This document shows, one piece after another, positions 6,271 through 56,820 of a stretch of DNA of 64,000 nt. Position numbers and translations under genes: made by a program. The notes below the pieces were generated by a model. It searched no databases. It worked only from the letters and a program-made list of their open reading frames with translations, and was not told where the DNA came from. The stretch comes from a virus (lineage: Duplodnaviria > Caudoviricetes), in IMG/VR virus record IMGVR_UViG_3300021400_000379, positions 35,639-99,638 of that record; one strand, given 5' to 3'. How positions within the stretch are numbered: position 1 is the first letter of the stretch; each line of letters opens with the position of its first letter.

Positions 6271-6271
6271 A

Positions 6272-15291: not shown

Positions 15292-17730
15292 TCAGCTATT
15301 ATTGAGCTGCGAGACAGTATTGGCCAAATCGAGCTGTTTGCTGATACCGAATGAGTATTTTGTACGCCCAGAGGGGTATTCTCTTGAATATTTTGACAGT
15401 GCCAGCTTCTGCGGATAGTATCTGCTGGGGAATTTCAGCCCCATCGCGGATACTGCGAGGTCCTGTTCGATATCGGTGAACTGTTTGACCGAGCTTACCG
15501 CGGGGAACAGCGCAGACCAGTAAGAATCAGGGCTGGTCTCGCCGTATGACCCGGAATTACGCTCGTTCGCGGTGAATGAGACCGATGTTCTGGTCTCTCC
15601 CCAATAGGCGAGCACCATATACAGCACCTTTCTGGCATAATACTCGGGCAGGACTGCGAAATACTGTGTCAGGTCAAGAGTATACAGCCCAGGGCCTTCC
15701 CCGATATCCTTGATGGACTGCTCAGCCATGTCGCGGATGCTCGCATACTCGGGATTTTCCGAAGATACGGAGTATTTTACGCATGGGCCGTCTCCCGAAA
15801 GGGGAGAGATCCATTCTCCGATGATAGGGTCGCTCAGGTCGTCCGCTTTATACCTGCCGAACTAGATCGTACGGGTCTTGACGGCCTTTTCCAGGCTCGT
15901 ATATACGTTATATTTCACCGCGACCGTGTTATATGTCGTGGTAGAACCCTGTGCGTCCTGAGATACAGTCCCGTAAACCCTTCCCATCAGACGGTCATAT
16001 GTACGTTCGCTGTGCAACTCGACGGAATCCAGAGTAGCCCTCCAGTCCTCGGGGCTCATTTCAATTGCCTGGATGTTTCCCATCGCCTCGTCCCACCCGA
16101 ATGATGGGTTGCTGCCCATATCAAGACCTGATCTCACGATGAGCCTGTTGAACGCTGTCCTCTTACGCTCGTCAGACCAGTCCTCGGATGCGGTACTGGG
16201 TATGTTCTCTGGCACTTCATCTGCCAATTTGGTATAATCTATGATATAAGCCCTGCTGTTCGCGAAGAATATGCGTGCGTTGCATATCATCGCGCATATC
16301 TGGAGGGTCGTCCAGATGTTCGCCCCCTTGATTATGGGGATGAACTCATCATGTGCGCTACCGAGCACGTCTAGAGTCATATCCTTCACGACGTCCTCAT
16401 CGGTATGGATTGGTGCAGACCTGACCGCATTCACGGAAATCTTCGACACGTCCACGTTGGATATGATCTGGTAAGGCAAGTAATAGTACCGTGAGTACAG
16501 CCCCGTACCGATGATATCCAGGATCATCGACAGCGGATCGGTCCAAGTGATGTTTGACGTGAATTTCATACCGCGGATTTCGCTGATTCCGCAATATGCG
16601 ATCATATCGTAGGAATTATCCCGCAGGGCACACTCAGTCACGATATATTCCCCCCTGCCTACGGCATTTATCTGCAGCTTGCTCTCACCGGGCTGGATTA
16701 TCGCGATTACCTTATCAGTCTGCATGTTCACATTCCCAGCCAGTTCGGGATATGTTCTCATGAATGCCCTTTTGGATAATTTTAGGGACACGTGCTCAAA
16801 AGGCTCCTCCAGTCCGCCGGTCATTGTATATGAGCTCACCAAGTCAAGACCCATATACCCTCCGTGCGAGGGGTCTGGTTGACCCTGTCTCGACCCGATG
16901 GTCAACGCGTATTCGGGAGTCTGTATCAGCACCCCGTTCAACTTCTTGACCGCCCTGACCTTGATGGACGTGTCCCTGGTGAAATACCACTCGTTATACT
17001 CGTTATACGCATTGTAACAGCTTGCGGTATTCAGATTGTCATAGATGGGGATATATCTGAGGGCGGGGTTCTTCTCATATAGCTCCCTAGGAATTGCCTC
17101 ATACTCTCCGTCTATGTGAGTGAAGAGCACACTATCCTCGTGCCCCTCGGACAGTTTCTCGGTCAGCCTGCCGCCTACCACTACGACCATGGACCCCGTG
17201 AGGTATTCCGAGTCTCCGCAGTTCAAGTCGATCTCCACTTCTTGTACGAAGATGTTCACCGCATGGCTGGAAGGTAACATCAGAGTTTGAGGGATGAATG
17301 TCTCTGTATCCTTTGTGATGTCCTCTGCATTCTTGGTATTGATGAACATGGTGTAACCGTCGGTCTTGATCTGCCACCTGTTTGCCAAGGACATGAGCGC
17401 GTCGCACCATTTGGCATTAGTCCATTTCCAAGAGGTCTTATCATAGTCGTCATCGTACACATAGGTCATATATGTGCCGTTAGGCAACTTTTTCAAGGGG
17501 TTCTTGCGGGCAAATGTGAATGTATAACTGTTCGAGGTGTTGGATTCCAGCGCGTATGTCGAATCTGTAGGCAGATTAGGGATGGGGATTGCGGTAATAG
17601 CCTTGTTCAGTGTGTCTGTAATCCCTGTCACTATCCCCAGATCATACATCGTTCCTGAATTCGTGCTGAAGCCCGTCCTTATCTGGATTAGTCCATATTC
17701 ATCCATATATTCACCCGTTGTTAATGACAT
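15292..17730 (-). CDS. Putative baseplate hub / tail-tip protein, 812 aa with in-frame TAG at codon 623 (probable pyrrolysine)
   Basis: TAG at 15862-15864 is followed by 44 sense codons that run in frame into the 145-aa ORF 15292-15729; located in the tail module. Confidence 0.75.
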
Positions 17731-20700
17731 CTCCGAGGAATTCTATAATTATTACTCCGTCTGCTCCAGCTCCACCAGGCGTGGTATATGTGCAAGCCCC
17801 ATAATCTAAGGCCTTGTGAACATAATTCACTGTATAATTCACAGTGTTAGTCACAACGCCTAGTGCCGCCTTCCATGTGTTTATATTGAACGCATTAATT
17901 ATGGCGCCCCCTGGGGAAAATGCATGCATCTGTTGTTCTATCGGTACTTTGACTACCTCCACCATTTCTTTGATGTTCAGGTCATAATCCTGCCACCTGA
18001 GCTTAGAGCATCCGCCTCCGCCGTACCTTGCGTTGCCTGCAGAGGAGGTTACAGTACATGTCGGGTCCTTGGTAGAGGTGGCTGTTTGACTTAAGATGCA
18101 CCCCCCGAGACTTCTGATGAGCTTCGCCTGAGCTTGCCTGCCGGAGAATTCTGCGTCGCCTGTCGCAGACCTGCCAGAAACGACCCAGATATTGGAGCTG
18201 GCCCGATAATGCCTATTAATGTTCGCCGCAGCTCCCCCAGAACTCGGATATACAACAGGATTGTTGTTCGGGTATGCCCCGTATCCCATACCTCCCCTGA
18301 TAGAGTCGGGATCAGCCTCGCCCGTAGAGCTGTTCTTCGATAATTCTCCATCTGTGGGGGACCCCTGGGACCCTTTGATGGCCTCTCCCGAGTCCCATCT
18401 GAGGTCCACATCCTTGCTGGTGGAGTTCTCCCCTCCGTTATAGGCTCCTGTACCTCTTTTATCTCTGCCACCGGCCTCTCCGCCTCCGGCACTGACGATT
18501 AATGCACTGCCATATCTGATTTCAGAGCTCTCACCATTGATTTCCGACGCTCCGCCCGCACCCAAGGTCAACGAGAATTCCCTGATACCCTCTTTGGAGA
18601 TATGCACGGTCCTGGCAACGGTAAATCCGCTTCCGCCGCCCCCGCCGACCATGAATGACGCGAGCTTGAACCTTATAATGTCATTCCCGCCAGTGATTTT
18701 CTCACCTGTGGCATAGCTGGAGCCGCCACCTCCGCCTCCGCCTACGGCGATACATTTAGCATATGCGTGGGTGTTTCCCTCCAATATCGTATTCCACAAG
18801 GTATCATGAGGGATTCTGACCTCGTAGGATCCGTTCACGGGGGCCTCGAAGACTACTACACCCAAGACCCGCCTGTATTTTATCGTGAACACCTGAGTGG
18901 AATCGATGTCTTGACCCTCCTCCTTGATGGTTTGCAGAGTAATCGGAAGCTCATCCCCGGGATAGGCATACCTTGTCACGGTCTTCTTCTCCATCACGGT
19001 AGACCCTTCCGACACGGGCGCACTCTCTTCTACGGTATATGCCCAGCATGCGGGCTCAGTACCCTCTTCTTGGAGCACGTCCTCAGGGAACTGGGGGGCG
19101 ATATAGACCCCATTGTAGGTTTCAAGCGTGATTCCTTTAACTTGTCCATCACGGTTGACATATCTGAATACGATCGACTGCTTCTTGATTGCGTTCCTTC
19201 CGCGCATGGATGCGACGGTAAACTGGAGGGTAAGTGTTACGCCTGCCCTGTTATATGGATACTGGAGCGGTGCAGAGAGGAACACGTTCTTATCGATCTT
19301 GGGGTACCCGTTATAGGATATGAGCGGGTCGAGGATGAGATTGTACCCTCCGCTCCTTTCCTCCTTGACGTCGTAGTTGGAATTCTGCCACTGGTCGAAG
19401 AAGGTCTTGACATATTTCACCCATTTGTTCGTCGACCAATCCGCGGGATTATGGCTCCTGTCATTAGGTTTGGCAGGTGGGGTGCGGGTGACGGTGATTA
19501 TGCATGTCTCCAAATTACCCAGATCTATGATATAGTTGAACTCCGAGGATTTTGTGAGCATCGGCGATTGATTCAGCTGCACCCTCACCTTTCTGCGGAC
19601 GTTGGTGATTGCCAGGTTAGGCTGGGTCTCCGTGGACAGGTATAACTTCTGCATATCCTCCTTGTGTTTCGTAGGATATTTGGTCACTACACACAGCGGG
19701 GCAAGGGGCAGTTCATCCAATATCTTCAGCAGGAGCACATTGTGCTTCTCCTTCGGACTCTCGCCTTGTACCGCCTCTGGGTATGTGACGAAATCCACCG
19801 CATAGAGTCCTTCATCAGCCCTTTCGGACACGAATGTTGCCCCGAATGTCTCCACCGACACATACTGAGTCGTAGCACCCTGCACTCTTGCCTCGAAGTG
19901 TTGGGTCTGTTTGCCCGTGGCCGCCAGCCATGACGCATATATCTCGTTGAATATCCAGTATCCGCTGGAATCCGTCACGAGCTTATACGTTCTGATCTCG
20001 GCAGGCTTCTGGGGGAGCCTCATATCCAGAGTATGCGCATATTTGTTAGATAATACAATCCAGTTTCCTGTATTGTCCATGTCCGAGCGGACCTGGGTAT
20101 AACTTGCGTCCAATATGCTGACTCCCTTGGTCTCGGTAAGGGATGGCGTGAGCAGGGTATAATCTGGGTTGGTCGGGTCCACATATATCCTGACTGTCTC
20201 TCCAGGAGTAAGTGTCAGGGTGACCTGTGTCTCACCAGATCCATTGATTGGTATCAACTCCGACGAAGGATCGGACGGGTTGCTGAACCTGTACATGAGT
20301 CCAGTAACGTAACCCACTCCCGCCTGGAATATCACTTTCGGGAACTGGGAGAAGGGAATCGTCACATCCAGCGACTCGCCGGGAATCACAAACGACTTGG
20401 CCCATAACGGATTCGCAATAGCCATCACATACAGCTCCACGGTCGCTTGGTTCCCGTAGGGGATCGCCAGGTCGGTGACATGAGAGATAACATTGTCCTG
20501 GGTATTGAACGCGATTGCTCTCACGGTGTCGGTAGTCTGGTCAATCCAACTGACCGCGGGAGTGATATCCAAGTACTCGTAGGTCTCATGGTCCTCGGTC
20601 TCCCACGCTACCGGGCCGATACAGCTATATTCTGTGCTGGCCCAAGCCCATTCAAGGTTCTTTGGAGACCATACCGCGTGTACAACGATTGCTCCAGCTC

Positions 20701-23700
20701 TAGCAGGAACGCTATACCCTACGACTTCACCCGCTTCCTCGGTCGGAACGATGCCCTCTCCCTCCCATGCGGACCATGTGCGGGTCTCCATCAGCGGGAC
20801 GATATTCGTCAATTGAATGGTCTGCCCCGTATAATCGGTATAATACCTGCGGAGATTCGCGGGAGTCGTACCCGTCGGCCAAACGCCCCCGTCCAAGTCG
20901 TAGACAAGGTCTGTGGTCCATGCCGCATATAGCGTCTTGCTCTCGGTAGCATTTGCGGCCAGTGTGACAGCGGACTCCAAAGCCCCGTTCTGGGTAAGAG
21001 TCCATCCTCCGTGTATATGCTGACTGTCTCCGCTGGCGGCTCTGTATCCGCCGAGTTGCCAAGTTCTATCCATCACGGTCTCGGTAGATCTCCTGATCCA
21101 ATTTATCCTAGCGGGAAGGATGACGTTGTTCCCCGCGGTGGCGTCGGTGTTCTCGAACGAGATGGTAGATAGTTTGAACTGTATCTGAGAAGATGGGACG
21201 ACTCCGCTGGAGGCGTTTATATTAATCGGCTTGAAGGTGAATGAATATGTGCCAGCGTCACATTCGCTGAAATCCAGTTCTACCGTAGATACATTGGAAT
21301 TACGGGTAATCCTGACGGGGACCGATCCCGTAGACGCCTGCGAATCGAGCACTATGGTCGGATTGGCCGCGTCCGTCGGGGTCGCAATATATCTGATGGT
21401 CACCTTGTCTGGGCCGATTTCCACTCCGCTTTCCGTAAGGGTCGTGACGAACTTACCCCAGGTGGCATAGAAAACCACCTGGCTATTCTCCTCAGGATAT
21501 GCACCCAACGCGTTGAGATATGTGCCGTAATAGTCTATTCCTGCGGAATATTCAGGAGTGCCGTCGATTGTCCTTGCAAATCCCATGAACGAGTTGTGTC
21601 CGCCATCCTCCAGGGCCACGATCTGTTCGCTGGTAGCGAAATCAGAGATGTCCAACACATTCGACTCGCCATAGGTCACAGGCATGATATAAGTCTCCGG
21701 CGCAGTGGCGTCGTTAGCACCTTTGTTGACCAGGAGTCTATATGTGGAATGCCTGCACTCCGCGAACAGACGGATGGTTGCGGAGCCTCCGGGTATAGAG
21801 CTCGCCTGGACTGTCGCGACCAATCCATCGTTCTCGGGGGTGTACACGATTGGTCCTGTGGAAAGATTAACTCCGTCTGGGTCATATGTCTGCCCAAGAT
21901 ATATCTTCGAGACATGCCACTTCGCTTGGGTCTCGGCAGACACATATTCCTGATCCGTCGGAATTCCGAGCTTGGACACGGCGTTAATGGTGATGGTGTT
22001 TCCGAAGTCCGCTACCCAAGGTCCGAAATATCTAGGCTTGTAATTGTCCTCAGGGATTCCGTAGTACAGCATCAGCGTATACTGCGTGGTCCAGTCTGCG
22101 ACATATTTAGGTGTGGCCGTTGTAGCTGCGAATGTATTGAATGCCACAGGGGTCTCTGCACGGCCACCTGCGTCAATCTCATGCGCAGGAGTATCAATGT
22201 CATCCCATCCGTTGAATACTCCTCCTCCCGTAGGCGTGAGGGTAGTCAGCGAGTACCTGACCTCGAAGGTGTATCCAGTCATGGCGGTACCGCTCATCGA
22301 AGGTACGAACCAATAATCCGCGGAGGGGGTCTGGCTCGGAGTAGTGTTATCGACACGAGAGTAATCTCCCGCATCTATCGGGCCCACCACGGTCTTGACC
22401 GGTTCTCCATCCTCTACGAATACCACATTTTGGACAGATGATGTGTAGGAGGTGTAGTAGGATACTTCTACCGTGAACTTGGGAGAATATATACTGTAGA
22501 CTGTTCCAGAGACCGTGGTCGTCAGCGTGACTTTATCCTTGGAATATGCCTGCACCTCCAGATTAGACGCGCTCCACCCTCTGAAGGTGTATCCCTCTGT
22601 CGGACGGATGGCGTTCAGCATAGAGGTCAGAGCGACGGGTGACTGTCCCGCAGTGGTGCAGGTCCATACTCCCCCGACCTTCTCTATCGTCCAGATAGTC
22701 CCAGAATTTTGAATGGTCCAAGTGATTCCTGTGTCAGCTTCATGCTTCCTGGGCAGGGCGGAGGGGGCGATGTACGCGCCATTCTCCCTGATCGTCGCCT
22801 CGAAAGCTCCTACCAGAGTCTTCTTCATGGACATCGTGCATCCCTGTGCGATCAGGAAGGAGATCGTACGGGTGTACATCCTCTCCCTCTCTACTGTCAG
22901 AACGATCTTCTGTCCGGGTTTGACCGCGATTGTAGTGTAAGTCCCTGTTGCAGAATAGATAACGGAGCTCCCGCTAATGACCCAGCCGTCGAAATACCAG
23001 CCGTCCACCTGCGTACTGCGCCCGCTCTCGTCCACATATGTGCCCGCTTCCAATACAGGTACATTGCTGATGATCTGGTGTTGCATGTTGCTGCCGATAT
23101 ACCCTGTGAGAGTTATCGTCGTCTCCTCGGGTGTGTCATTGGGTGCCCAGCTCTCTCCTCCTCCGTTGCGGTTGGGATCCAATACATATGAGACTGTGCC
23201 CTGTCCCTTCCAGACCGCGTAATAGATATAGTCTGCCCCAATGTCTACGGATGAGCCAGCAGCATGGATTACGCCCGTATCATCGATTGTAGGGCCGTAT
23301 CCGATGAAGTTTCCGTTCTCGAACAAAGCCGCCGTAGTCCAGCCGTGATAGGTGTATTGAAGCCCGTCTTTGGTCCAGCCCGGAATTGCGGCTGGCGCTG
23401 TTCCAGAGAGGTGTGTCGTAGCTTTCACCGTTGAATACGCCGTCCAAGCGGGAGACCATACGGTCACGGTGGAGAATGTGCTGGAATTCTCTCCAGCGGG
23501 GCGACGATCGTCATAGAACTTAGAGTCGTATCTACGCTTATATTGTTCCGAACGGACATACTGGAGGTCCAATACCGTGTTTGCAGTGAATGTATACTGG
23601 GTGCCAAAGGAATATTCCGTAGACCCGCCTTGCACTTTGTATTTATTCGGCGTGAGTGTGGTCTTGGCCTGGGCGGTGAACGCATCCTCTGTGGCGTATG

Positions 23701-25846
23701 CGACGCTTGTCTTGACGATCTCGGTATATCCGCTGGAGGGGATGGTATAGTGCCATTGGACCCTGTGCGTCAAGCCCACGGTAGTTGAGGTATATCCGCC
23801 TACGGATAGGGTCTCGGATTCTGTCGCATGATGTGCGGGGACGATGGTAACGGCATCTGGGTCATACGCTCTGAGCGTGAGTGTGACCTTTAAGAACGGT
23901 ACCGCATACAAAGTCAGGTTCTGCATATCCGTGATGTTCAGTATCGTCCTCTTCCCGGACTCATATGCGAACGCCCAGTATTTCGCGGTATCCTCCGCGT
24001 CTATGGTATAGCTGGTCTCAGTACCAACGGTCGTACCCTGTGTCCAAGTAGGGATTGTGGTCCTGGAGGTTTGGGTTGCAGAGAGGTGCCACCCCTCATA
24101 GGTGTCTGTCGAGGTATCTGCTGGGTCATATGCAGAGACCCATTCGATTATCCAGTCATTCGCGTCTCCAAACCCGCTTACCGTGTCCTTATATGCGTTG
24201 CTGGCGGTATCATTCTTCTTCTTATACAGTGTCAGGGTGTGCGGGACGAGTGTATACGTTGCGGTCGCAGTAACACTCTGCGCGGGCATAGTGTTATTAG
24301 AAGAAGTCCAAGTATAAGTGTGACCGTAGGCGTATGCTACCGTATGATTCGGATCCATTCCCGCGCTGGCAATGTTTGTGGATATATTGGACCCGTAGGG
24401 GAATTTCTTGGTCTTGGATCCGGACACATTCACGCGCCTATAGACCTTTGTCACGTCCAACGACCATTGTATGGTAAGATCATACCAATCCAGCCTGTAT
24501 TTGGCATAAAGTGTGATGTTTCCGTATGCTCCGCCTGTCGCCGTCGAGATCTGTGCCAAGGTTATAGTGAACGACGCGGGTTTTGAGGAATCCGACTCCC
24601 CGGACGCAGTATCATCCGATACCTGTGTGAAGCCCCACCCTGTACATGTATATCCCGTGCGCCCCGTTGCTGCATAAATAGTCAAACTAGCGGTCTCTAC
24701 AGTATAGTACGTCGGATTTCCAGTAGATGCTGTACCTTGCCCCGCATTGTATGTAATCGTATACTTATGCGGAGTCCAGTAAGCATATAGCGTGAGATTT
24801 TGATGTTCTGACGCAGGGGTGATTGTGGTGACTTTATTAGCGAAGCTATCCTCCCGATACCATCCCTGGAAATCATAATGAGCCCTCCGTGTGGCTGCTT
24901 GTGTCTCAAGATCGATCTGGGAGGATTCTACCGTGTACGTTATTGGTGATACCGCAGAACCACTGTTGGTCTGGAAGGTGATTGTATATGTTATAGGGGT
25001 CCATTTCGCCCAAATCTCTACGTCACCTATTGACCCCGCAGGAATTCCTGTTATCTGGGTCGTACCTTGTGCGTCGGTGTACCACCCCGAGAAGTTGTAA
25101 TAACTTCTCGAAGGGTCGGCAAAGGTGATTGCACTGGACTCAACCGTATACTTTAACGGATTCGCTATCGCGTTGATCCCAGGAGAGACATGGTATGTGA
25201 TGGTGTATTCAATCACACCCCATTTCGCGTATAATGTCAGATTACGGGCGGTCTCCGAGGGAGTGATCGCAGTCAATGGGTCTCCCGAATACTCCGCATT
25301 GTCATACCATCCCGCAAAGGTGTACCCCCTCCTTGTGGATATTGCACTGGTTGCAAGATCAATCTGGGAGGATTCTACCGTGTACGTTATTGGTGATACC
25401 GCAGATCCGTTCACGGTATCGAACGATAGAGTATATTGTATCGGTGTCCAGGTCGCGGTAAGGGTCATTCCCGTTTCCGAGACTGTATCCTCGGAAGCTT
25501 GCCACGCCAGAGAATATCCTGTCTTAGTTACGGTCTGGGCAAAGTCGGCCAACACGTCTGCTTTGGCCATTCCAAGCGGAAAATCTTTGGTATATCCTCC
25601 TTGTATAGGGGTCCATCCTGCGGGAGCGGAGGGCACCGTCCCCCCACTGAGAAGTACTCTGGCAAATCCCGCGCCGGTTACAGTGTATTGGTCGGGAACA
25701 AGTACAAGCGAATAACTCTCGCGCTCCGTAGTATTCGGAATATACAATAATTCCTCTACTGGGGAGAAGACGAGTGAGTAACTGGTACGCTCAGTGGTAT
25801 TCGGGAGCGAATCCCCCGCGTTAATATATTCTGTCAGTATCTCCAC
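17711..25846 (-). CDS. Giant adhesin-like tail protein (Listeria-Bacteroides/InlB B-repeats, tail domain, Gly-rich C-terminus)
   Basis: Repeats ending RRGYTFAGWY...LTLYAKW; C-terminal domain similar to the N-domain of the hub gene; IAVGGGGGGG Gly-rich domain. Confidence 0.85.
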   Translation of the reverse strand: MEILTEYINAGDSLPNTTERTSYSLVFSPVEELLYIPNTTERESYSLVLVPDQYTVTGAGFARVLLSGGTVPSAPAGWTPIQGGYTKDFPLGMAKADVLADFAQTVTKTGYSLAWQASEDTVSETGMTLTATWTPIQYTLSFDTVNGSAVSPITYTVESSQIDLATSAISTRRGYTFAGWYDNAEYSGDPLTAITPSETARNLTLYAKWGVIEYTITYHVSPGINAIANPLKYTVESSAITFADPSRSYYNFSGWYTDAQGTTQITGIPAGSIGDVEIWAKWTPITYTITFQTNSGSAVSPITYTVESSQIDLETQAATRRAHYDFQGWYREDSFANKVTTITPASEHQNLTLYAYWTPHKYTITYNAGQGTASTGNPTYYTVETASLTIYAATGRTGYTCTGWGFTQVSDDTASGESDSSKPASFTITLAQISTATGGAYGNITLYAKYRLDWYDLTIQWSLDVTKVYRRVNVSGSKTKKFPYGSNISTNIASAGMDPNHTVAYAYGHTYTWTSSNNTMPAQSVTATATYTLVPHTLTLYKKKNDTASNAYKDTVSGFGDANDWIIEWVSAYDPADTSTDTYEGWHLSATQTSRTTIPTWTQGTTVGTETSYTIDAEDTAKYWAFAYESGKRTILNITDMQNLTLYAVPFLKVTLTLRAYDPDAVTIVPAHHATESETLSVGGYTSTTVGLTHRVQWHYTIPSSGYTEIVKTSVAYATEDAFTAQAKTTLTPNKYKVQGGSTEYSFGTQYTFTANTVLDLQYVRSEQYKRRYDSKFYDDRRPAGENSSTFSTVTVWSPAWTAYSTVKATTHLSGTAPAAIPGWTKDGLQYTYHGWTTAALFENGNFIGYGPTIDDTGVIHAAGSSVDIGADYIYYAVWKGQGTVSYVLDPNRNGGGESWAPNDTPEETTITLTGYIGSNMQHQIISNVPVLEAGTYVDESGRSTQVDGWYFDGWVISGSSVIYSATGTYTTIAVKPGQKIVLTVERERMYTRTISFLIAQGCTMSMKKTLVGAFEATIRENGAYIAPSALPRKHEADTGITWTIQNSGTIWTIEKVGGVWTCTTAGQSPVALTSMLNAIRPTEGYTFRGWSASNLEVQAYSKDKVTLTTTVSGTVYSIYSPKFTVEVSYYTSYTSSVQNVVFVEDGEPVKTVVGPIDAGDYSRVDNTTPSQTPSADYWFVPSMSGTAMTGYTFEVRYSLTTLTPTGGGVFNGWDDIDTPAHEIDAGGRAETPVAFNTFAATTATPKYVADWTTQYTLMLYYGIPEDNYKPRYFGPWVADFGNTITINAVSKLGIPTDQEYVSAETQAKWHVSKIYLGQTYDPDGVNLSTGPIVYTPENDGLVATVQASSIPGGSATIRLFAECRHSTYRLLVNKGANDATAPETYIMPVTYGESNVLDISDFATSEQIVALEDGGHNSFMGFARTIDGTPEYSAGIDYYGTYLNALGAYPEENSQVVFYATWGKFVTTLTESGVEIGPDKVTIRYIATPTDAANPTIVLDSQASTGSVPVRITRNSNVSTVELDFSECDAGTYSFTFKPININASSGVVPSSQIQFKLSTISFENTDATAGNNVILPARINWIRRSTETVMDRTWQLGGYRAASGDSQHIHGGWTLTQNGALESAVTLAANATESKTLYAAWTTDLVYDLDGGVWPTGTTPANLRRYYTDYTGQTIQLTNIVPLMETRTWSAWEGEGIVPTEEAGEVVGYSVPARAGAIVVHAVWSPKNLEWAWASTEYSCIGPVAWETEDHETYEYLDITPAVSWIDQTTDTVRAIAFNTQDNVISHVTDLAIPYGNQATVELYVMAIANPLWAKSFVIPGESLDVTIPFSQFPKVIFQAGVGYVTGLMYRFSNPSDPSSELIPINGSGETQVTLTLTPGETVRIYVDPTNPDYTLLTPSLTETKGVSILDASYTQVRSDMDNTGNWIVLSNKYAHTLDMRLPQKPAEIRTYKLVTDSSGYWIFNEIYASWLAATGKQTQHFEARVQGATTQYVSVETFGATFVSERADEGLYAVDFVTYPEAVQGESPKEKHNVLLLKILDELPLAPLCVVTKYPTKHKEDMQKLYLSTETQPNLAITNVRRKVRVQLNQSPMLTKSSEFNYIIDLGNLETCIITVTRTPPAKPNDRSHNPADWSTNKWVKYVKTFFDQWQNSNYDVKEERSGGYNLILDPLISYNGYPKIDKNVFLSAPLQYPYNRAGVTLTLQFTVASMRGRNAIKKQSIVFRYVNRDGQVKGITLETYNGVYIAPQFPEDVLQEEGTEPACWAYTVEESAPVSEGSTVMEKKTVTRYAYPGDELPITLQTIKEEGQDIDSTQVFTIKYRRVLGVVVFEAPVNGSYEVRIPHDTLWNTILEGNTHAYAKCIAVGGGGGGGSSYATGEKITGGNDIIRFKLASFMVGGGGGSGFTVARTVHISKEGIREFSLTLGAGGASEINGESSEIRYGSALIVSAGGGEAGGRDKRGTGAYNGGENSTSKDVDLRWDSGEAIKGSQGSPTDGELSKNSSTGEADPDSIRGGMGYGAYPNNNPVVYPSSGGAAANINRHYRASSNIWVVSGRSATGDAEFSGRQAQAKLIRSLGGCILSQTATSTKDPTCTVTSSAGNARYGGGGCSKLRWQDYDLNIKEMVEVVKVPIEQQMHAFSPGGAIINAFNINTWKAALGVVTNTVNYTVNYVHKALDYGACTYTTPGGAGADGVIIIEFLGDVINNG
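24907..25405. repeat. 52-bp direct repeat (24907-24958 and 25354-25405, one mismatch)
   Basis: Both copies encode SAVSPITYTVESSQIDL; spacing 447 bp. Confidence 0.9.
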
Positions 25847-32549: not shown

Positions 32550-33500
32550 TCACCTCATCAGAGAATAGACCGATCCGGGCCTCTGGTACGACGCGTAAAT
32601 CGTATTCTCCTCTTCCTTCCAACCCGTAAGCATAGCTTCCTTAATCTTGGATATATCTCCGCCCGTGCCAAGCCTGACATTATATGCCTGCATATTGAGT
32701 ACCTGGGCTGCAGTCATGATACATGCCAGCCTATTGATTGCGGGTGGGAGCTCATCGGGAGGTGCCCCCCACCTATAGGAGATTTTCATCGCTTGAGCCG
32801 CTGGCATATACACACGCCTCTTGATGAACAGCCTTCCGTTAGGCCTGTCAATCCAGAATGTATTATTGAGTACATCGGCGGCAAGCAGGTTATCGAAGGT
32901 CCAGATGGAGTCTGAGTCTGAATCTTCTCCGATCATAGTGTCCTGATCTATATTCTGCCAGGACATATCATACCAAATGTTGTTATGGGTACGGACGAGC
33001 AATTTGTCTCTGTAAATGACCTCTCTTCCGGTAATCGGAATCTTACCCTCCGCGTCCCTTACTCCGATCTCATCTATGAAATACTCTTTCCCGTTGTGTA
33101 TGCCGACCCGACCTACTGCCAGCTTCTTGATGTCCTCGACGTACCATGTCTCGGATTCCTCTTTACATACTGGGGTGGGGTCCCAAGGGAGTATATCTTT
33201 TCTTAGCTGGACATAATTTCCGCCTTGACGGTAATACTCCATGCGCCAAGCGTTCTCGTCTTGCCAATATTTAGGGATGTTCAACGTGCGGTCTTTAACA
33301 TAATTGACTCTCCACGACCTTTTCAAACGCCTGTCGATGATGTCTTCATTAGAACAAATCATCCTACAGACTTGCTTGTAGGATGGATGAGTCATATCTG
33401 TGAACGTGAAATAACCATAATTGTCATCGGGGTCGGATGGGAGGTCTAGCGTCTCCGCAACCTCGTCCGGTGTACAATAGGTCGGTTCCATATCTATCAT
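32550..33500 (-). CDS. Head-tail adaptor (neck) protein
   Basis: N-terminal YCTPDEVAE and ISYRWG...LPPAINRLACIMTA. Confidence 0.7.
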   Translation of the reverse strand: MIDMEPTYCTPDEVAETLDLPSDPDDNYGYFTFTDMTHPSYKQVCRMICSNEDIIDRRLKRSWRVNYVKDRTLNIPKYWQDENAWRMEYYRQGGNYVQLRKDILPWDPTPVCKEESETWYVEDIKKLAVGRVGIHNGKEYFIDEIGVRDAEGKIPITGREVIYRDKLLVRTHNNIWYDMSWQNIDQDTMIGEDSDSDSIWTFDNLLAADVLNNTFWIDRPNGRLFIKRRVYMPAAQAMKISYRWGAPPDELPPAINRLACIMTAAQVLNMQAYNVRLGTGGDISKIKEAMLTGWKEEENTIYASYQRPGSVYSLMR

Positions 33501-33531
33501 AATTATGATAGTGTGGTCTTAATATATATTA

Positions 33532-33717
33532 TCAAAGTGTTTTTATGGTGAAAATGCGACCATCCGGGCAGGAGACTGTGGTTATACCATCAATCTCCTG
33601 CAGGATGCAGTTCTGCCCAAATAATGCTTCGGCGACTATGAATGAGTCTTCGATATCAAGGTCTACTTTTCTTATAGCATCGGCGCTTCCCGTTGCGGGG
33701 CATATTATCCAGATCAT
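33532..33717 (-). CDS. Hypothetical protein
   Basis: 61-aa ORF filling the end of the operon. Confidence 0.45.
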   Translation of the reverse strand: MIWIICPATGSADAIRKVDLDIEDSFIVAEALFGQNCILQEIDGITTVSCPDGRIFTIKTL

Positions 33718-33946
33718 CAGTAATAATCACAAATCCCTCTGACCCTGCCTCATGTTTAGCCATCTCAAATAATATCTCATTTAACATATCTTTAATTGAG
33801 ACCAATTGATTTCTGGTCAGCAGGATGCAGATCTTCTTACCTTCCTTGTGGAAGATTAAGTTACTCCTATATCCTTCTTTCTTTGTCCAAGTACTCTCTG
33901 CGGTTACTGCAACCACGTTCTTCATCTTAACATTCTTCTTACTCAT
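33656..33946 (-). CDS. Hypothetical protein
   Basis: GAGGA RBS; overlaps the upstream stop. Confidence 0.6.
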   Translation of the reverse strand: MSKKNVKMKNVVAVTAESTWTKKEGYRSNLIFHKEGKKICILLTRNQLVSIKDMLNEILFEMAKHEAGSEGFVIITDDLDNMPRNGKRRCYKKSRP

Positions 33947-34091
33947 CTTGCATTCCTCTCAAAAGTTCCTCTATAATTTCCCTGATATCCCACATTGCTT
34001 CTGAAAGGTCTGTATACCCTTCAATGCTGTCATCGGCAATTTCTTGTATCCTGACCAAGCTGGCATAATGGGATTTTTCTGAATTATTCAT
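33939..34091 (-). CDS. Small hypothetical protein (50 aa)
   Basis: MNNSEKSHY...GMQDE; fills the gap and overlaps the next start. Confidence 0.55.
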   Translation of the reverse strand: MNNSEKSHYASLVRIQEIADDSIEGYTDLSEAMWDIREIIEELLRGMQDE

Positions 34092-34119
34092 ACGTCGTAA
34101 TATCCTTCACAGTATATCA

Positions 34120-34413
34120 TCAATCGCTCTCGTCAAAGCCCTCGACTGACTCGAGTACTTCTCTGACATCCTCGGCGGAACGGGCTACTATGTATATTCC
34201 GCCAGCTTCACGTATCTCTCTCATCCGTCTTTTTTGTATAGGGCTTTGAACTCCCGTGGGAGTTTTGCCTTCGATGGCAATATACCTCCCACGGAAGCAG
34301 GCTACTATGTCTGGGTCGCCTGGTTTGCTGTATCCGCCACCAGTCACAGCAGACCAGAACGCACCCACGGATTCAAGGTACTTCTTGATCTCCTTCTTTA
34401 TATCCGACTCCAA
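34120..34413 (-). CDS. VRR-NUC / Holliday-junction-resolvase-like nuclease
   Basis: ESDI, GDPDI, IEGK, SPIQ PD-(D/E)xK motifs. Confidence 0.9.
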   Translation of the reverse strand: MESDIKKEIKKYLESVGAFWSAVTGGGYSKPGDPDIVACFRGRYIAIEGKTPTGVQSPIQKRRMREIREAGGIYIVARSAEDVREVLESVEGFDESD

Positions 34414-34669
34414 GGTCTCCCCTCGGAACTACTTCCAGCTCTACTGCATCACCCTTCTCGAAGCCCCAGATCTTATCAAGATAAATCATGGTAGCTCCGT
34501 TACAGTTCACCACTTTCTTAGTGGTGACCACTGTATGTGTGGGGTCATCCGATGCAGTAATCCTCACTTGTACGAGATCTCCCGCGGATAGGCCATATAA
34601 CCTATTGAGGAAGACGCACAGTGCGTGCCCGTTCACGGTGACGATTTTGGTGTCTCTATATGGCTCCAT
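34373..34669 (-). CDS. Tandem AbrB/SpoVT-like DNA-binding protein
   Basis: Two repeats (KIV...YGLSAGDLVQV and KVV...WGFEKGDAVEL). Confidence 0.65.
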   Translation of the reverse strand: MEPYRDTKIVTVNGHALCVFLNRLYGLSAGDLVQVRITASDDPTHTVVTTKKVVNCNGATMIYLDKIWGFEKGDAVELEVVPRGDLGVGYKEGDQEVP

Positions 34670-34670
34670 C

Positions 34671-35216
34671 TCATTCGTCCTTGGGTTCCTCTGTGGAGTT
34701 GAGGTAATTTACTGCTTCATCATCACAGCCCTCGTAGTACTGATCTATCTTCGAGAATTCAACCACGAAGTCTACGGGAGCAGGGGCGTACTCCTTGATT
34801 CCGTATGCAACGCCGGGCTCACCGTTCTGCTTGGTGTAGTTCCTGGCTTCAACGATTCCGACAACGACTCCGCCGACGATATTCTCGGGATTGGGGAGTT
34901 TACCGCTGGCACGGAATGCAGGCCCTGCAAGCGCAGCTCCGAGAGAGATGAGGGTGTCTTTGGTAAACTTGTTAGGGAAACGGGAGCCGGTGCTCTTGCT
35001 TTTAGAAGTCAGGTGATATTTGTTGGAGACGTATGCCCCGCCCTGGATATCCCTAAGCACAACCCTATAGATCGGGTCGTCAGGAACAGACTCATCAATC
35101 TCCGCACCGGTAATCATCATGAACCTGTTTCCGGGGGTGGGCTCTACATAATCTTCGTTCTCAATATTCTCGTATTTCCAACTTGTGTGTGTATACATTG
35201 TCATTGCCTCTTTCAT
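34671..35216 (-). CDS. Putative ssDNA-binding protein (DUF669-like)
   Basis: PTPG...ITGAE N-terminus, acidic tail, located next to recombination genes. Confidence 0.5.
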   Translation of the reverse strand: MKEAMTMYTHTSWKYENIENEDYVEPTPGNRFMMITGAEIDESVPDDPIYRVVLRDIQGGAYVSNKYHLTSKSKSTGSRFPNKFTKDTLISLGAALAGPAFRASGKLPNPENIVGGVVVGIVEARNYTKQNGEPGVAYGIKEYAPAPVDFVVEFSKIDQYYEGCDDEAVNYLNSTEEPKDE

Positions 35217-40029: not shown

Positions 40030-40380
40030 TTAATGTCAGGGAGTTATATAAGTCAATCGTAGTAGTCTGATAAGACTATTTTTTGTAGATATTATGCACA
40101 TTGACCAAATGTAGTAAATCCGTATTATCCCATACTACACATTTCTTTAAATACTCTTTATATAGCTTTATATACTCTGCTATTTTTTACATAATACGCA
40201 TATGAGGTAATATACAATATAATACATGTATGAGTATGTATATTACACATAATAAGTATTTGAAAATTAATTTTTACTACAACCTCAAATTGTGTGTATG
40301 GGGTATATAAAATTATTCATGATTTTCTTTATATATAAAATGGTAATAATATTTAAATAACACAATATATATTGTGCAAC
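40030..40380. other. AT-rich non-coding region, candidate replication origin
   Basis: Long AT-rich gap with GTAGTA/TACTAC repeats immediately upstream of the helicase genes. Confidence 0.45.
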
Positions 40381-47247: not shown

Positions 47248-47382
47248 ATTTATCGTGTTGACATGGCATAATGGATATAAAATGTAGCGGATTTAACCCT
47301 CCGCCAGGGGTGGCATCCCAACCAACCAATAGAGTCAATCAAATGGCAAGCCTAGGATGCATATCTAGGATAAAAGAGTTGC

Positions 47383-47838: not shown

Positions 47839-47839
47839 T

Positions 47840-48540: not shown

Positions 48541-48786
48541 TTAAACATGCTCATCTAGCTGGCTTTTGAGTACATCTGCAAGGGCTTTGAGCTCATTATC
48601 ATACAGTGTGGTCCCTTTTCCTATGATTTTATGGTCCGGCCCCCACCGCCTGATCTCATACACGGGCGTTTTCCCCTCCCAGCTGACCTTATTAAACTCC
48701 AAAGTCCATCCGCGGGCATCGGTAGAGAGAGTCGCATAGTGCTCCAGTATCTCGAATTTGGCCTCGGACTTGAACTCATCCCTCAT
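48541..48786 (-). CDS. PC4/YdbC-family ssDNA-binding protein
   Basis: GWTLEFNKVSW...YEIRRW.PDH..GKG.TL. Confidence 0.9.
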   Translation of the reverse strand: MRDEFKSEAKFEILEHYATLSTDARGWTLEFNKVSWEGKTPVYEIRRWGPDHKIIGKGTTLYDNELKALADVLKSQLDEHV

Positions 48787-49082
48787 TCCACAATCACCCA
48801 GTCATCGGAAATCATGTCAGTCTGGCTGGCGAGCCACCCACAGAGCCTGGCCCGACGGTCGGATGAATTGGTGGTGTACATATCGATGTGGGGAAGGATC
48901 TCCACATACCCTTGTTCAATCTCTCTGGGGGTCGCAGCTTGTGCTCCGGTGCGGTCAACCCATTGATCCACGGGGATTCTGCGCCCCTCGACCAGATAGA
49001 CATACATTCCTTTACCATTCCACCCAAGGCGGGTCACTTTCTTTCCGGCCTTGAGAAAAGCCATCGCATCTCCGAAGTTCAT
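48783..49082 (-). CDS. tad2: DUF2829 / Thoeris anti-defence Tad2-like protein
   Basis: MNFGDA..LKAGKKV.R.GWNGKGM...W.ASQTD..SDDW. Confidence 0.85.
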   Translation of the reverse strand: MNFGDAMAFLKAGKKVTRLGWNGKGMYVYLVEGRRIPVDQWVDRTGAQAATPREIEQGYVEILPHIDMYTTNSSDRRARLCGWLASQTDMISDDWVIVE

Positions 49083-49324: not shown

Positions 49325-49692
49325 AGATTGATTACCAGGCGGTTTGCCTTCAAATCATCTATCAGTGCGTGGATTAGGCCCATTATCACAACGACTGCCA
49401 GGGTCGCTGCCAGCGGTAGAGAGATGTCACCCAGGGCCAGGGCGGGCAGTGACACGCAGATACTCCACTCCATCCCGTGCAGGATAAGCACGATTACGTA
49501 ATCATACCTATACTTCGGGGGGAGTTTCGGTGCAGTACCATTGTGTTTCGCCCACTGTTCTGCCCACCAGCTCTTCTGTTTCATATCTGCCATCTTACCC
49601 TGCAGGTGGAAGTCCTCTACTATGTGTGCGAGGGCCGTCAGCAGGATGATCAAGCCTATTGTATCTATCATTGTATCAACCGATATAATCAC
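49261..49692 (-). CDS. DUF3307-like membrane protein
   Basis: AHIVEDFHLQG, HALIDD, DQLLH. Confidence 0.85.
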   Translation of the reverse strand: MIISVDTMIDTIGLIILLTALAHIVEDFHLQGKMADMKQKSWWAEQWAKHNGTAPKLPPKYRYDYVIVLILHGMEWSICVSLPALALGDISLPLAATLAVVVIMGLIHALIDDLKANRLVINLWTDQLLHMIQLILLLSVLLW

Positions 49693-49940
49693 TGAACTAA
49701 TCCCTATAGCTTCAGATTAAGTATAATCCCAAAGATTGTGAACATACCGATTATCGCTATCAAAGATGTCACCCAACCCCAATCTTCTAGGTCCATCAGA
49801 TGTAACGTTGAAGCCCTGAAGTCTAACTCATCCACCCCATGTAAATAGTGTACCCCGAGGCCTATCGCACCTCCAAGGAATACCCAGAGGAATAGTGAGA
49901 GTATACACTTAAGAATAGGCATAACGATTGCGTCAATCAT
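49689..49940 (-). CDS. Two-TM membrane protein, 83 aa with in-frame TAG at codon 79
   Basis: TAG at 49704-49706 then GGA TTA GTT CAG TGA; the TGA overlaps the GTG of the next gene (GTGA). Confidence 0.6.
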
Positions 49941-50014
49941 CCTTCCACACTCATGTACATCGAGACCGCTATCGCTGTCAGATAGAGTCCGAGCAGTATA
50001 ACTTCGGTCATCAT
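49937..50014 (-). CDS. 25-aa hydrophobic peptide
   Basis: MMTEVILLGLYLTAIAVSMYMSVEG; ATGA overlaps at both ends. Confidence 0.5.
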   Translation of the reverse strand: MMTEVILLGLYLTAIAVSMYMSVEG

Positions 50015-50208
50015 CTCTCCATAGGCAGTCCGAGCCCCTGGCGGCACTTGGTACAGGAGATCTCGTACACCCAAATCTTTGCGTTGGGGTCAACGCCCTG
50101 TGGGTAACTCCTGAAGGTGCCATTACCGCACTTGGGGCATTTGAGGAGGATCATGCCTGCATGAGGGACGTACCCCTCCTTCATGGCGCGATCAATCTCA
50201 TCGGTCAT
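50011..50208 (-). CDS. Zn-ribbon protein
   Basis: CPKC...CTKC. Confidence 0.7.
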   Translation of the reverse strand: MTDEIDRAMKEGYVPHAGMILLKCPKCGNGTFRSYPQGVDPNAKIWVYEISCTKCRQGLGLPMER

Positions 50209-50698: not shown

Positions 50699-50702
50699 GA
50701 TA

Positions 50703-51404: not shown

Positions 51405-51421
51405 GATATACCTCATGTAAC

Positions 51422-51442
51422 TATATACCTATTAGGTATATA
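51422..51442. promoter_or_regulatory. Palindromic TATA/operator site
   Basis: TATATACCTA-T-TAGGTATATA upstream of PCNA. Confidence 0.6.
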
Positions 51443-51443
51443 A

Positions 51444-51776
51444 TCAGTTCGTCCCCAATATGTCCTCGAACGCCTTCAGGTCCTCTTTGGCGGACTCGAG
51501 CAACGTCGGGTCGTGGAGGCCCTCCGCGGACCTGATCATCTCAATAGCCGCGGTAAGGGTGTTATCGAGCCTAACGCAAGTGTGCCAAGCTGCTTTCCTC
51601 CAAGTCATCTCCGACGCAGTATCACAAGGGGTCAGGTCCTCGACACGATGCTCGATATATTCGGAAATGCATTCCAGCAACGAGTCCACCGCGTCGTAAA
51701 TCTTCTTCTCCATCTCACCTGCTCTTTCTGCTTCTTTGCGAGCTTTGCTCGAGTTCACCATCGTCATATCTTTCAC
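51444..51776 (-). CDS. Hypothetical helical protein
   Basis: AGGTGA RBS; 110 aa. Confidence 0.7.
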   Translation of the reverse strand: MKDMTMVNSSKARKEAERAGEMEKKIYDAVDSLLECISEYIEHRVEDLTPCDTASEMTWRKAAWHTCVRLDNTLTAAIEMIRSAEGLHDPTLLESAKEDLKAFEDILGTN

Positions 51777-51963: not shown

Positions 51964-51964
51964 G

Positions 51965-54817: not shown

Positions 54818-55007
54818 TCTCGTACGCTCTCCTGTTCCAATCCTCAATGACTTTGGATTTATCATAGCCATTGGCCCATTCGGACTTGGAAAATCTCATT
54901 ACGCAACCCGTACACCATATCATATACTCATTATCCCCTTGTATACTGTTTCTTACGGATAATTCAACATCCGCATTGCAGAATGGACATGGTTTTAATC
55001 CATTCAT
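54810..55007 (-). CDS. Lar-like restriction-alleviation Zn-finger protein
   Basis: LKPCPFC...C..C...IEDWNRR. Confidence 0.8.
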   Translation of the reverse strand: MNGLKPCPFCNADVELSVRNSIQGDNEYMIWCTGCVMRFSKSEWANGYDKSKVIEDWNRRAYEND

Positions 55008-55258
55008 TCTCTCTCCTCTTTATGTTCAGGTGGCACTCTAAGTATTAAATCATACTCTACTCCGGTTGTAATTTCCTGAGGTTGCCAATTGATCCGCGTA
55101 TCATCTGTTGAATCAGATACTGTATTCCAAGATGGCGCCCTGCCCTCTCTCATCATCCATCCGCACCTGCTGCACTCGACAACAAGTATGGGTGGGTTAG
55201 AGGTAAGGGCAGTATGAATGAGTGCGTGTCCGCAGTTCGGACAGTAATTGAAATTCAT
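55004..55258 (-). CDS. Zn-ribbon protein
   Basis: YCPNCG...CSRCG. Confidence 0.65.
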   Translation of the reverse strand: MNFNYCPNCGHALIHTALTSNPPILVVECSRCGWMMREGRAPSWNTVSDSTDDTRINWQPQEITTGVEYDLILRVPPEHKEERE

Positions 55259-55590
55259 TCTTTCTCCTCCTTCCACATCGCCTTCACATCATCAGGAACC
55301 ATCTTCTCCAACACTTCGAGAGGGATTTCATCGACATAGTACGTCGCCCTGAATACCTCATCGGTACACGGATAAACCCCGCCTTTTACGTCACGACATA
55401 CCCAATCTCCACGACTCACTCCCCCACTTCCGTTTGGGGTCTTGATGGAATATCTCTTCACCTCTTTTGAATGGATATCCTCCATATACCCGTTTATATT
55501 TTCTTCGCCTACGAATTCCTCTAACTGCTTCCAATTATCCCCCGTGAATTGAATCGCGTCGACATAGTTGATCTTACGCTGATACCTCAT
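55255..55590 (-). CDS. Conserved phage protein (YRKK..AIQF...GDW...YPC...F..TY family)
   Basis: MRYQRKINYVDAIQFTGDN...GDWVCRDVKGGVYPCTDEVFRATY. Confidence 0.8.
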   Translation of the reverse strand: MRYQRKINYVDAIQFTGDNWKQLEEFVGEENINGYMEDIHSKEVKRYSIKTPNGSGGVSRGDWVCRDVKGGVYPCTDEVFRATYYVDEIPLEVLEKMVPDDVKAMWKEEKE

Positions 55591-55914
55591 TCACTCACTC
55601 TCCACATACCTCTTGAACTCTTGAGCGTTATTGGGTACGGTGACTTGAGACAAATCCATGATGCCATAGATTCTTATGTCCTGTTGGCCCTCATCCCAAT
55701 CCCAATCCCATACCCACACATCTCTACTTTCATCGTATTCTATGTGGCAGCATATGCTCTCCCACTCTTCATCAGACTCCCAGCTATACTTGGCCTCGAA
55801 ATCCAAGAGCACGTAGTTGGAGAGGAACCCATCGGACAGGTTGAGATGTTCTTTAAAATAGGCGTTGATGAAGTCATCTAACTGTCCTCTGGTCACTTGC
55901 AGATATTCACTCAT
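55591..55914 (-). CDS. Acidic Trp-rich hypothetical protein
   Basis: 107 aa with operonic overlaps. Confidence 0.7.
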   Translation of the reverse strand: MSEYLQVTRGQLDDFINAYFKEHLNLSDGFLSNYVLLDFEAKYSWESDEEWESICCHIEYDESRDVWVWDWDWDEGQQDIRIYGIMDLSQVTVPNNAQEFKRYVESE

Positions 55915-56048
55915 TCTTCCACCTCAATCTCATACTTCTTTTTGCCTTGTCTTTTCATATATTCAACTGCTTCTTCCCAACTATCGCAACGTTGGGTCTC
56001 TCCCCAACATTCGTAGTCGTCGTACTCATCCCAATGTACCCAAATCAT
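55911..56048 (-). CDS. 45-aa hypothetical protein
   Basis: GAGGAGG RBS; MIWVHWDEYDD...; ATGA overlap. Confidence 0.6.
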   Translation of the reverse strand: MIWVHWDEYDDYECWGETQRCDSWEEAVEYMKRQGKKKYEIEVEE

Positions 56049-56075
56049 TCAATCTTCCTCCTTTATCCAGCATCT

Positions 56076-56276
56076 TCATCTGAAAGCCCATATTGTACTG
56101 AATCCGTAATCGAGTAGGATGGTGGCCATGTCAGATGAATCCTATACAGCAATCTCGGTTCTGAACCTATGTCTGACTATGAACACGGTATAGCCATCGC
56201 CTACTTTTCTCCACTTGATTATCTTCCATTTACGGCCTATGGCATCACGATAGGTCTTACCGATAATGAAGGTCAT
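56076..56276 (-). CDS. 66-aa protein with in-frame TAG at codon 45
   Basis: TAG at 56142-56144 then DSSDMATILLDYGFSTIWAFR-TGA, which fills the intergenic gap. Confidence 0.6.
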
Positions 56277-56455
56277 ACTTTCTTCTCCATTTTCGCTATG
56301 AGTGCTTGCTTTACAGTTGCCCAGCAGTCTGGGCACAAGTCCATTACACTGTTGCGATCACCCATGTTCACTAGGCTCAGGTCGCATTTGATCCAACCTA
56401 ACATACGGCAATCCTCAATCCTTCCGCAACCATCACATTTAATCAGATGGGTCAT
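56273..56455 (-). CDS. Zn-finger protein
   Basis: CDGC...DLCPDC. Confidence 0.7.
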   Translation of the reverse strand: MTHLIKCDGCGRIEDCRMLGWIKCDLSLVNMGDRNSVMDLCPDCWATVKQALIAKMEKKV

Positions 56456-56820
56456 TCCTTCGCCTCCCAGCAACCTGATCCCATTGTACTGCCTTTTGTA
56501 CAGCCAGCCTGCACATCTTCAAACTCCTCATCCATCAATATACCGATTACAGGGGAGTAGTATTTACAGGTCTGACAGACATGCTAGGGACTATACCTAT
56601 CGCATCTATCCCAGGTACGCCAATTTGGCGGAGCACCATATTCGCGAACAACCTTATTGTTGACCTTACAGTACACATTGGCTCCATAATACACATTCTC
56701 GCAATGCTTACAAGAGTGGGGCTTATCCACGGGGTATGGAAGAGTCCTCTCCTTAGGTTTAGCCGCAAGGGCAAGTTCCGGGAAACAGTCTGATGGCTTC
56801 TTCTTATGGAACATGCTCAT
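56452..56820 (-). CDS. Tandem Cys4 protein, 122 aa with in-frame TAG at codon 79
   Basis: After TAG at 56584-56586: HVCQTCKYYSP...GC...GCWEAKE-TGA, overlapping the next ATG. Confidence 0.75.

Follow-up and report, generated by a model that had tools for sequence, protein, structure and literature searches.

In-frame TAG codons in a tailed virus of the sheep rumen, probably translated through the pyrrolysine code of a methanogen host

Decoding of TAG as pyrrolysine (Pyl) across whole archaeal proteomes has been shown only recently, when proteomics of Methanomethylophilus alvi and Methanococcoides burtonii revealed a genome-wide TAG = Pyl assignment termed "Genetic Code 34" (Kivenson et al., bioRxiv 10.1101/2024.09.30.615893). 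The preprint deals with cellular genes, transposases and casposons, and the words "virus" and "viral" are absent from it (10.1101/2024.09.30.615893). In Pyl-using (Pyl+) archaea TAG accounts for ~4-5% of stops (PMC12626013), and in Ca. Methanomethylophilus alvus for 1.6%, with 16 extra Pyl proteins predicted (Borrel et al. 2014, PMC4153887). In Methanosarcina, a TAG can lead to a shortened product as well as a lengthened one (PMC12626013). Smacoviruses assigned to Ca. Methanomassiliicoccus intestinalis end 4.25% of their coding sequences (CDS) in TAG, which has been used as host evidence (Diez-Villasenor and Rodriguez-Valera 2019, PMC6336856), and among the 3,708 archaeal viral genomes that AVGD surveyed in 2026, a test based on coding density revealed no alternative code (PMC13465236). 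Here we analyzed a 64,000-nucleotide stretch of DNA (hereafter the window), the final 64 kb of the 99,638-bp virus genome IMGVR_UViG_3300021400_000379, in which four genes have a TAG past which the frame stays open.

Recoded gut phages usually possess their own suppressor tRNA or release-factor genes, and their code often differs from that of the host; they contain hundreds of in-frame stops, and their coding density collapses under table 11. These phages, described by Ivanova in 2014 and Borges in 2022, are said to read TAG as Gln (code 15) or TGA as Trp (code 4). The virus analyzed here resembles them in having genes that are readable only if a standard stop codon is translated. In contrast to them, it lacks a suppressor, its in-frame TAGs number about eight, its coding density shifts by about 2 points, and its code would be the same as its host's. 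With the Code 34 archaea it shares internal TAGs in non-methyltransferase genes with homology on both sides ("Category 1"), TAG at no more than ~5% of gene ends, TGA-rich stops, and the absence of a cis recoding element or a large forced overlap; unlike them, it has no pylTSBCD of its own. Like the smacoviruses, it is a Methanomassiliicoccales-linked virus with TAG rare as a terminator, whereas the smacovirus work concerned avoidance only, with no in-frame TAG in viral genes, and small single-stranded DNA viruses rather than a 100-kb tailed virus. The tailed virus vir335 (BK063680 / NC_134205) shares with it TerL (49.5% identity), portal (41%), protease, tail module, RecE-like nuclease, helicase, primase and ThyX, and differs in its tail homologue, one uninterrupted 641-aa open reading frame (ORF), and in its GC content (58% versus 49% here). 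No homology-supported in-frame TAG was found in vir335.

The record is a single contig from sheep rumen (GC 48.8%) with a direct terminal repeat, and the viral genome is therefore complete. It is the genome of a tailed virus. We consider it likely that its host is a Pyl-decoding methanogen, whose tRNA-Pyl decodes the viral TAG codons in the manner of Genetic Code 34. Nearly all window genes lie on the minus strand, including all 40 genes called in the interval 15292-56820. The four genes concerned are:

15292..17730, minus strand, tail-module gene, 812 codons with its single in-frame TAG read (site 1)
49689..49940, minus strand, small membrane-protein gene, 78 aa up to the TAG and 83 aa with read-through (site 2)
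56076..56276, minus strand, gene for a 66-aa protein with the in-frame TAG at codon 45 (site 3)
56452..56820, minus strand, gene for a Cys-rich 122-aa protein with the in-frame TAG at codon 79 (site 4)

Under table 11 these genes appear as four ORFs that end in TAG (15862-17730, 49704-50123, 56142-56336 and 56584-56820, all minus), exactly where the initial annotation of this DNA had placed them, and the codons were verified at 15864-15862, 49706-49704, 56144-56142 and 56586-56584 (minus). As had been claimed, every frame stays open past its TAG, for 189 codons at site 1, 4 at site 2, 21 at site 3 and 43 at site 4, and closes with TGA at 15292-15294, 49689-49691, 56076-56078 and 56452-56454, respectively. 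The read-through extensions stop 0-4 nt inside the next gene or short of it, with no large out-of-frame overlap. Overlaps between TGA and a downstream start, on which an argument had been built, are present at site 2 (GTGA) and site 4 (ATGA); alone they are weak evidence, and the case is carried by homology. With a mean chance extension of ~33 codons, no extension length is significant except the 189 codons at site 1; extension length is thus also weak evidence, and homologues were therefore relied on.

Genes were called with a codon model self-trained on the genome's own longest ORFs, the window count taking in well-scoring genes of at least 50 aa. The 65 genes of the window end in TGA (53), TAA (9) or TAG (3), with 32, 5 and 3 such ends among the 40 genes of the interval 15292-56820 and 91, 18 and 3 among the 112 genes of the whole genome. 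All three TAG ends in the well-scoring set belong to interrupted genes, those of sites 1, 3 and 4; the site 2 gene scores low in the codon model and is absent from this set. TAG makes up 21.6% of the stop trinucleotides in the genome, and the binomial probability of three or fewer TAG ends in 112 genes is ~8e-9. Judged by these counts, TAG is evidently avoided as a terminator in this virus. The near-absence of TAG as a gene end, first noticed in the interval, thus extends to the re-called whole genome, and no clear TAG terminators were found elsewhere.

A naive longest-ORF set gave 11 TAG ends, and the extra ones were rejected by codon scoring as antisense, low-scoring or overlying better-scoring short genes on the same strand. 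Re-calling with TAG as sense, which had been proposed as a check, raised coding coverage from 0.909 under table 11 to 0.930. This gain of ~2 points lies below the >5-10% expected of recoded phages, and density screens (AVGD 2026, PMC13465236) therefore miss such viruses. The genome contains about eight in-frame TAGs; four candidates outside the window (genome positions 6389, 13557, 15751 and 24458) were picked out by codon score only. Searches with ARAGORN, relaxed ARAGORN and Rfam found nine tRNAs and no tRNA(CUA) in the genome, and neither PylS nor any other pyl gene is encoded in it, so that the absence of both, originally stated for the window, holds for the whole virus.

At site 1 the TAG is codon 623 of the tail-module gene, and table 11 yields a 622-aa product and a separate 145-aa ORF, although the ORFs 15862-17730 and 15292-15729 share one frame across the TAG. 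Five homologues of 844-882 aa (P0003-P0007) span the TAG and cover 98-99% of the 812-aa product at 39-42% identity. One 642-aa homologue ends exactly at the TAG position, and its DNA comes from three rumen metagenome assemblies. The loci L001, L002 and L003 (52-55% amino acid identity) have TAG at the site 1 codon in the context TRTI-TAG-FGRY, and the 190 codons after the TAG in the 642-aa relative align to the window without a gap. The 45 codons from the TAG to the first ATG contain no in-frame start in the window, no stop and no indel, and differ at 0.35 of non-synonymous sites (pN) versus 0.78 of synonymous sites (pS, saturated); the remaining C-terminal part has a ratio of non-synonymous to synonymous substitution rates (dN/dS) of 0.18. 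More distant tail homologues, in vir335 and in the related virus contig C2 described below, share the C-terminal motif, which in both closes one gene. The pattern of conservation indicates that the site 1 sequence is translated as one 812-aa protein.

Pfam and PHROGs offered no family for the 812-aa protein, and scans of IMG/VR with the tail-protein and site 4 alignments returned no relatives. An AlphaFold model of the protein built from 7 sequences had a mean predicted local distance difference test score (pLDDT) of 36, too low for use. In C2 (L004 9974-12297 = G001:C2 ~81.4-83.8 kb) the N-terminal 217 aa of the tail homologue end at a TGA and the remainder lies in another frame; this split may reflect a frameshift, whether a programmed one or one introduced by assembly.

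The site 4 TAG (56586-56584) is codon 79 of 122, and the TGA that closes the frame forms the ATGA overlap with the next gene. Two homologues, P0010 (122 aa, 91% identity) and P0011 (119 aa, 83%), cover 100% of the read-through product and have Tyr at the TAG position, and the 43 residues that follow are near-invariant in both. The corresponding codon is TAC in one relative (L006) and TAT in another (L005), with mostly synonymous differences downstream. An identical TAG is present in a separate ENA assembly from a sheep-rumen sample (L041, a 99,586-bp scaffold). The comparison shows that TAG replaced Tyr recently, and that the gene has remained under selection.

For the 66-aa protein of site 3 (TAG at 56144-56142, codon 45), an exhaustive profile-free search gave 15 relatives, and the family alignment (A3) is contiguous through the TAG position. 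This position is occupied by Gln in P0016 (83% identity) and by M, L or E in other members, and the 21 residues after the TAG match the conserved C-terminal GF(S/T)TI(W/Y) block of the family. Two database proteins, P0017 and P0020, are called as ending exactly at site 3; in the DNA of one of these two relatives (L038), TAG stands at the site 3 codon and is followed by the conserved C-terminal block.

At site 2 the TAG (49706-49704) is followed by 4 codons and then by TGA in the GTGA overlap with the GTG at 49692. The homologues P0014 (72% identity) and P0015 (65%) likewise end at this TAG. The ~45 nt after it, comprising the 4 codons and the GTGA overlap, are identical in the window, L016 and L017, whereas the upstream coding sequence has diverged. 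Read-through at site 2 may add a 5-residue extension. The identical block (window 49650-49710, minus; L016 2480-2545; L017 765-830), whose flanking proteins are 65-72% identical, may also be a conserved translational-coupling or regulatory element.

Alignment of homologues across the TAGs, another check proposed at the outset, therefore places three of the four (sites 1, 3 and 4) within sequence that, by its conservation, is translated and selected coding sequence. The initial interpretation of a Pyl code holds at these three sites as far as TAG as a sense codon is concerned; that the residue is pyrrolysine, and which species is the host, we infer. RNA folding 3' of the TAGs, with L013 among the five folded sequences set aside, gave no stable structure (z-scores -1.2 to +0.3), which fits context-independent decoding.

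Related viruses have in-frame TAGs of their own in other genes. They were detected by an all-against-all comparison of TGA/TAA-delimited segments with a best-frame filter, which few homology-spanned TAGs survive; a six-frame tblastn search was discarded because it was swamped by off-frame and antisense alignments. Contig C2 (L004, G001:C2, CAVICI010000002.1; 90.7 kb) has ~35 proteins in common with the window virus, including TerL (64%) and portal (53%). Its position 61067 is a TAG that interrupts a 512-aa D5-like primase at residue 190, ahead of the Walker A motif, and this protein aligns end to end with the 498-aa primase of the window. In the 79-kb contig G148:C199, a TAG at 74291 lies within a 96-aa Tad2-like protein homologous to that at window 48783-49082. 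Many proteins are shared with G148:C199, G135:C89 and G150:C127. Stop usage (TGA/TAA/TAG) is 71/16/2 in C2, 11/1/1 in L001 and 95/9/3 in the annotated CDS of vir335, and gene callers split the TAG genes in every public record examined. C2 is a whole related virus, and its two ends are mutual reverse complements.

The most likely host, as judged from genome comparison, is a pyrrolysine-using methanogen of the order Methanomassiliicoccales. INPHARED yields a single match to the tail protein, vir335, which is recorded with Methanomassiliicoccales as its host and has 24 syntenic homologous proteins in common with the window virus. Both C2 and G148:C199 are located in methanogen genome bins with PylS. 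The initial guess of a Methanomassiliicoccales host is backed by synteny with vir335, by closer relatives in bins positive for McrA and pylSBCD, and by the viral tRNA-Gln. The sole match in the species-genome collection is G001, which is titled "Dialister hominis" and carries McrA together with a pylS-pylB-pylC-pylD cluster, all above NCBIfam cut-offs. Directly 5' of pylS is a 71-nt cloverleaf tRNA with the anticodon CUA, missed by ARAGORN, with a 4-nt D loop, a 6-bp anticodon stem and a 3-nt variable loop. The G001 PylS has 273 aa, and its best solved relatives are the short pyrrolysyl-tRNA synthetases without the N-domain (8ifj, 7r6o, 6jp2 and 6ezd), which we take to be from Methanomassiliicoccales (ISO4-G1 and M. 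alvus). With McrA, pylSBCD and tRNA(CUA), this bin is therefore a Pyl-using methanogen of the Methanomassiliicoccales type, its title being wrong or the bin mixed, and Dialister was ruled out as the host by the McrA and pylSBCD genes. The G001 contigs named with the methanogen genes and the virus are C2, C16 and C6.

PylS is above the cut-off in 160 of the 261 genomes of the G001 order, including G046, G135, G148, G150 and G168, and terminase-level DNA relatives of the virus occur in five more genomes of the order, four of them PylS-positive. A host check by tRNA or spacer match, also proposed at the outset, succeeded for the tRNA: the viral tRNA-Gln (6117-6191) is 95% identical over 75 nt to G046:C5:6412-6486, from a PylS-positive genome. 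It is matched in all 261 genomes of the order at 80-95%, mostly 80-88%, the comparison having been made within this order, and the top match suggests recent capture from the host lineage. The spacer part of the check, run on two 20-kb parts of the window, gave no match.

Two further observations bear on the putative host. The viral thyX (57967-59151, minus) has stretches 80-88% identical in DNA to thyX in many genomes of the order. TATA-like boxes (TTATATA / TATATAYC) are found ~25-35 nt 5' of the ATG that opens each of several gene runs, and no Shine-Dalgarno sequence intervenes; they might fit archaeal promoters and leaderless mRNAs, an impression from a handful of cases.

33500-33530, minus strand, TATA-like box
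40040-40050, minus strand, TATA-like box
47270-47285, minus strand, TATA-like box
51430-51445, minus strand, TATA-like box
62095-62105, minus strand, TATA-like box

We propose that the genome is adapted to a cell that routinely translates UAG. A constitutively charged host tRNA-Pyl(CUA) would decode the few viral in-frame TAGs as it does in the host's own genes, inserting pyrrolysine and giving the full-length tail-module protein and two small proteins. Since the virus has no pylTSBCD, the decoding would be borrowed from the host; the presence of the Pyl machinery in this particular host, and efficient read-through, are presumed. The virus would close its genes with TGA or TAA because TAG is unreliable as a terminator in such a host, and newly arisen TAGs, like the one that replaced Tyr at site 4, would be tolerated as missense rather than nonsense mutations.

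Several points weigh against this proposal. The site 2 TAG could be a true terminator with a back-up TGA, and no homologue support was obtained for the four TAG candidates outside the window in metagenome scans, an order-wide protein search or a Pfam scan. The identity of the inserted residue is reasoned from the presumed host. TAG is ambiguous between stop and Pyl in Pyl+ archaea, as the dual products of Methanosarcina illustrate (PMC12626013), so truncated products and short isoforms may also form in this virus. The link to a host by way of C2 and G148:C199 depends on how metagenomic contigs were binned, and the NCBI title of G001 is "Dialister hominis". An order-wide DNA search with two 20-kb window parts, in which two candidates per genome were scored, produced tRNA, terminase and thyX similarity only and no spacer-like exact match. 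Finally, the viral TerL is ~48% identical to those of Firmicutes phages, about equal to its similarity to vir335.

That last point also bears on the possibility of a bacteriophage that infects a bacterium and reads TAG as a standard amino acid (code 15-like, Gln). The TerL proteins concerned are those of Bacillus and Streptococcus phages, the closest relative in the genome collection bears the name Dialister in its title, and recoded phages are common in gut samples. We nevertheless regard this origin as very improbable: neither the virus nor C2 has a suppressor tRNA(CUA), a density gain of only ~2 points with only ~8 in-frame TAGs does not resemble such phages, the "Dialister" genome has McrA and pylSBCD, and the viral tRNA-Gln has matches throughout the methanogen order. 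The TATA-like boxes without Shine-Dalgarno sequences point weakly in the same direction. No more credible is the view that the TAGs are ordinary stops in split or decaying genes (pseudogenes or a two-subunit tail protein) or assembly errors. Every TAG is a legal terminator, an ATG is available 45 codons past site 1, and gene callers do split these genes in database records. Against this, protein-level conservation begins right after the TAG with no start codon before it, the identical TAG recurs in diverged relatives and across separate assemblies, the conserved genes that contain TAGs differ among three related viruses, and TAG is otherwise absent as a terminator.

Regulated partial read-through, in which TAG mostly stops translation and a minority of ribosomes pass by means of Pyl-tRNA or a near-cognate tRNA, would set a ratio of short to long products (622/812 aa at site 1), as for the Q-beta A1 protein. 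It would explain why TAG is kept at sites 1, 2 and 3 in diverged relatives, which is unexpected of a freely replaceable residue, and it agrees with the position of site 1 about three quarters along the protein and with the short and long forms of a TAG gene made in Pyl+ Methanosarcina (PMC12626013). We consider it unlikely, because no stimulatory RNA structure lies 3' of the TAGs, the C2 primase TAG precedes the helicase domain and would leave a useless truncated product, site 4 is a recent Tyr-to-TAG change and no conserved switch, and in other viruses the homologous tail protein is a single chain. Conservation of TAG is also predicted by a single-codon Pyl code wherever Pyl is selected. The retention of TAG at sites 1-3 is only suggestive of selection for Pyl or for a fixed read-through ratio, given the few comparisons.

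A stronger form of the Pyl-code proposal, which we put forward as a rather doubtful speculation, is that the TAGs at sites 1, 2 and 3 (relatives at 52-75% identity) are under selection, either because Pyl is functionally required in virion or early proteins or because UAG senses the host supply of Pyl-tRNA. If UAG were such a sensor, completion of the 812-aa tail protein, and thus virion assembly, would be tied to the methylamine/Pyl state of the host. If the TAGs are selected, the code would also be a host-range lock against Pyl-free archaea.

Other identified genes of the genome encode a tail tube-like protein, tail-fibre proteins, an SNF2 helicase, a RecE-like nuclease and RtcB, and the window includes the D5-like primase (498 aa). 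The remaining located features of the window are:

791-2314, TerL
5582..6357, plus strand, nine tRNA genes (Thr, Asn, Met, Pro, Ile, Lys, Gln, Thr, Ser; ARAGORN and Rfam)
17711-25846, minus strand, tail-module giant protein of 2,711 aa
25834-27588, minus strand, BspA-type leucine-rich-repeat protein (PF13306, 293 bits), adjoining the giant protein
48783-49082, minus strand, Tad2-like protein of 99 aa (Pfam PF11195, Thoeris anti-defense 2-like, 82.8 bits)
57967-59151, minus strand, thyX (ThyX)

The tRNA array is tightly packed and includes a tRNA-Ile(UAU). The BspA-type protein and the 2,711-aa giant, whose homologue in L001 has Flg_new repeats, resemble adhesin-like host-recognition modules. 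The Tad2-like gene, whose G148:C199 homologue contains the in-frame TAG, is a candidate anti-defence gene in an archaeal virus. Upstream of the window, a long well-scoring ORF on the minus strand at genome positions 33950-34680 (L040 ~13950-14680) overlaps the start of a prohead-protease-like gene (32926-34011) by over 60 nt; the latter may have a mis-set start, or there may be a frameshift in the head module.

In the literature surveyed, which did not include the compendium of Medvedeva et al. 2023, no paper was found that describes in-frame TAG or Pyl decoding for a virus. The new element would be the borrowing of a host's Pyl code by a virus. For annotation, the consequence is that table 11 gene callers break TAG genes apart, and amber avoidance together with internal TAG can serve as a signature of a Pyl-decoding host. 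In metaproteomes from rumen and gut, a 237.15-Da residue would mark the TAG sites in viral peptides. If confirmed, these would be the first archaeal viruses with a non-standard code, and the dependence of a virus on the 22nd amino acid, here in structural as well as replication genes, would be without known precedent. The code mismatch should confine the virus to Pyl-decoding cells, and viruses of rumen methanogens are relevant to methane mitigation.

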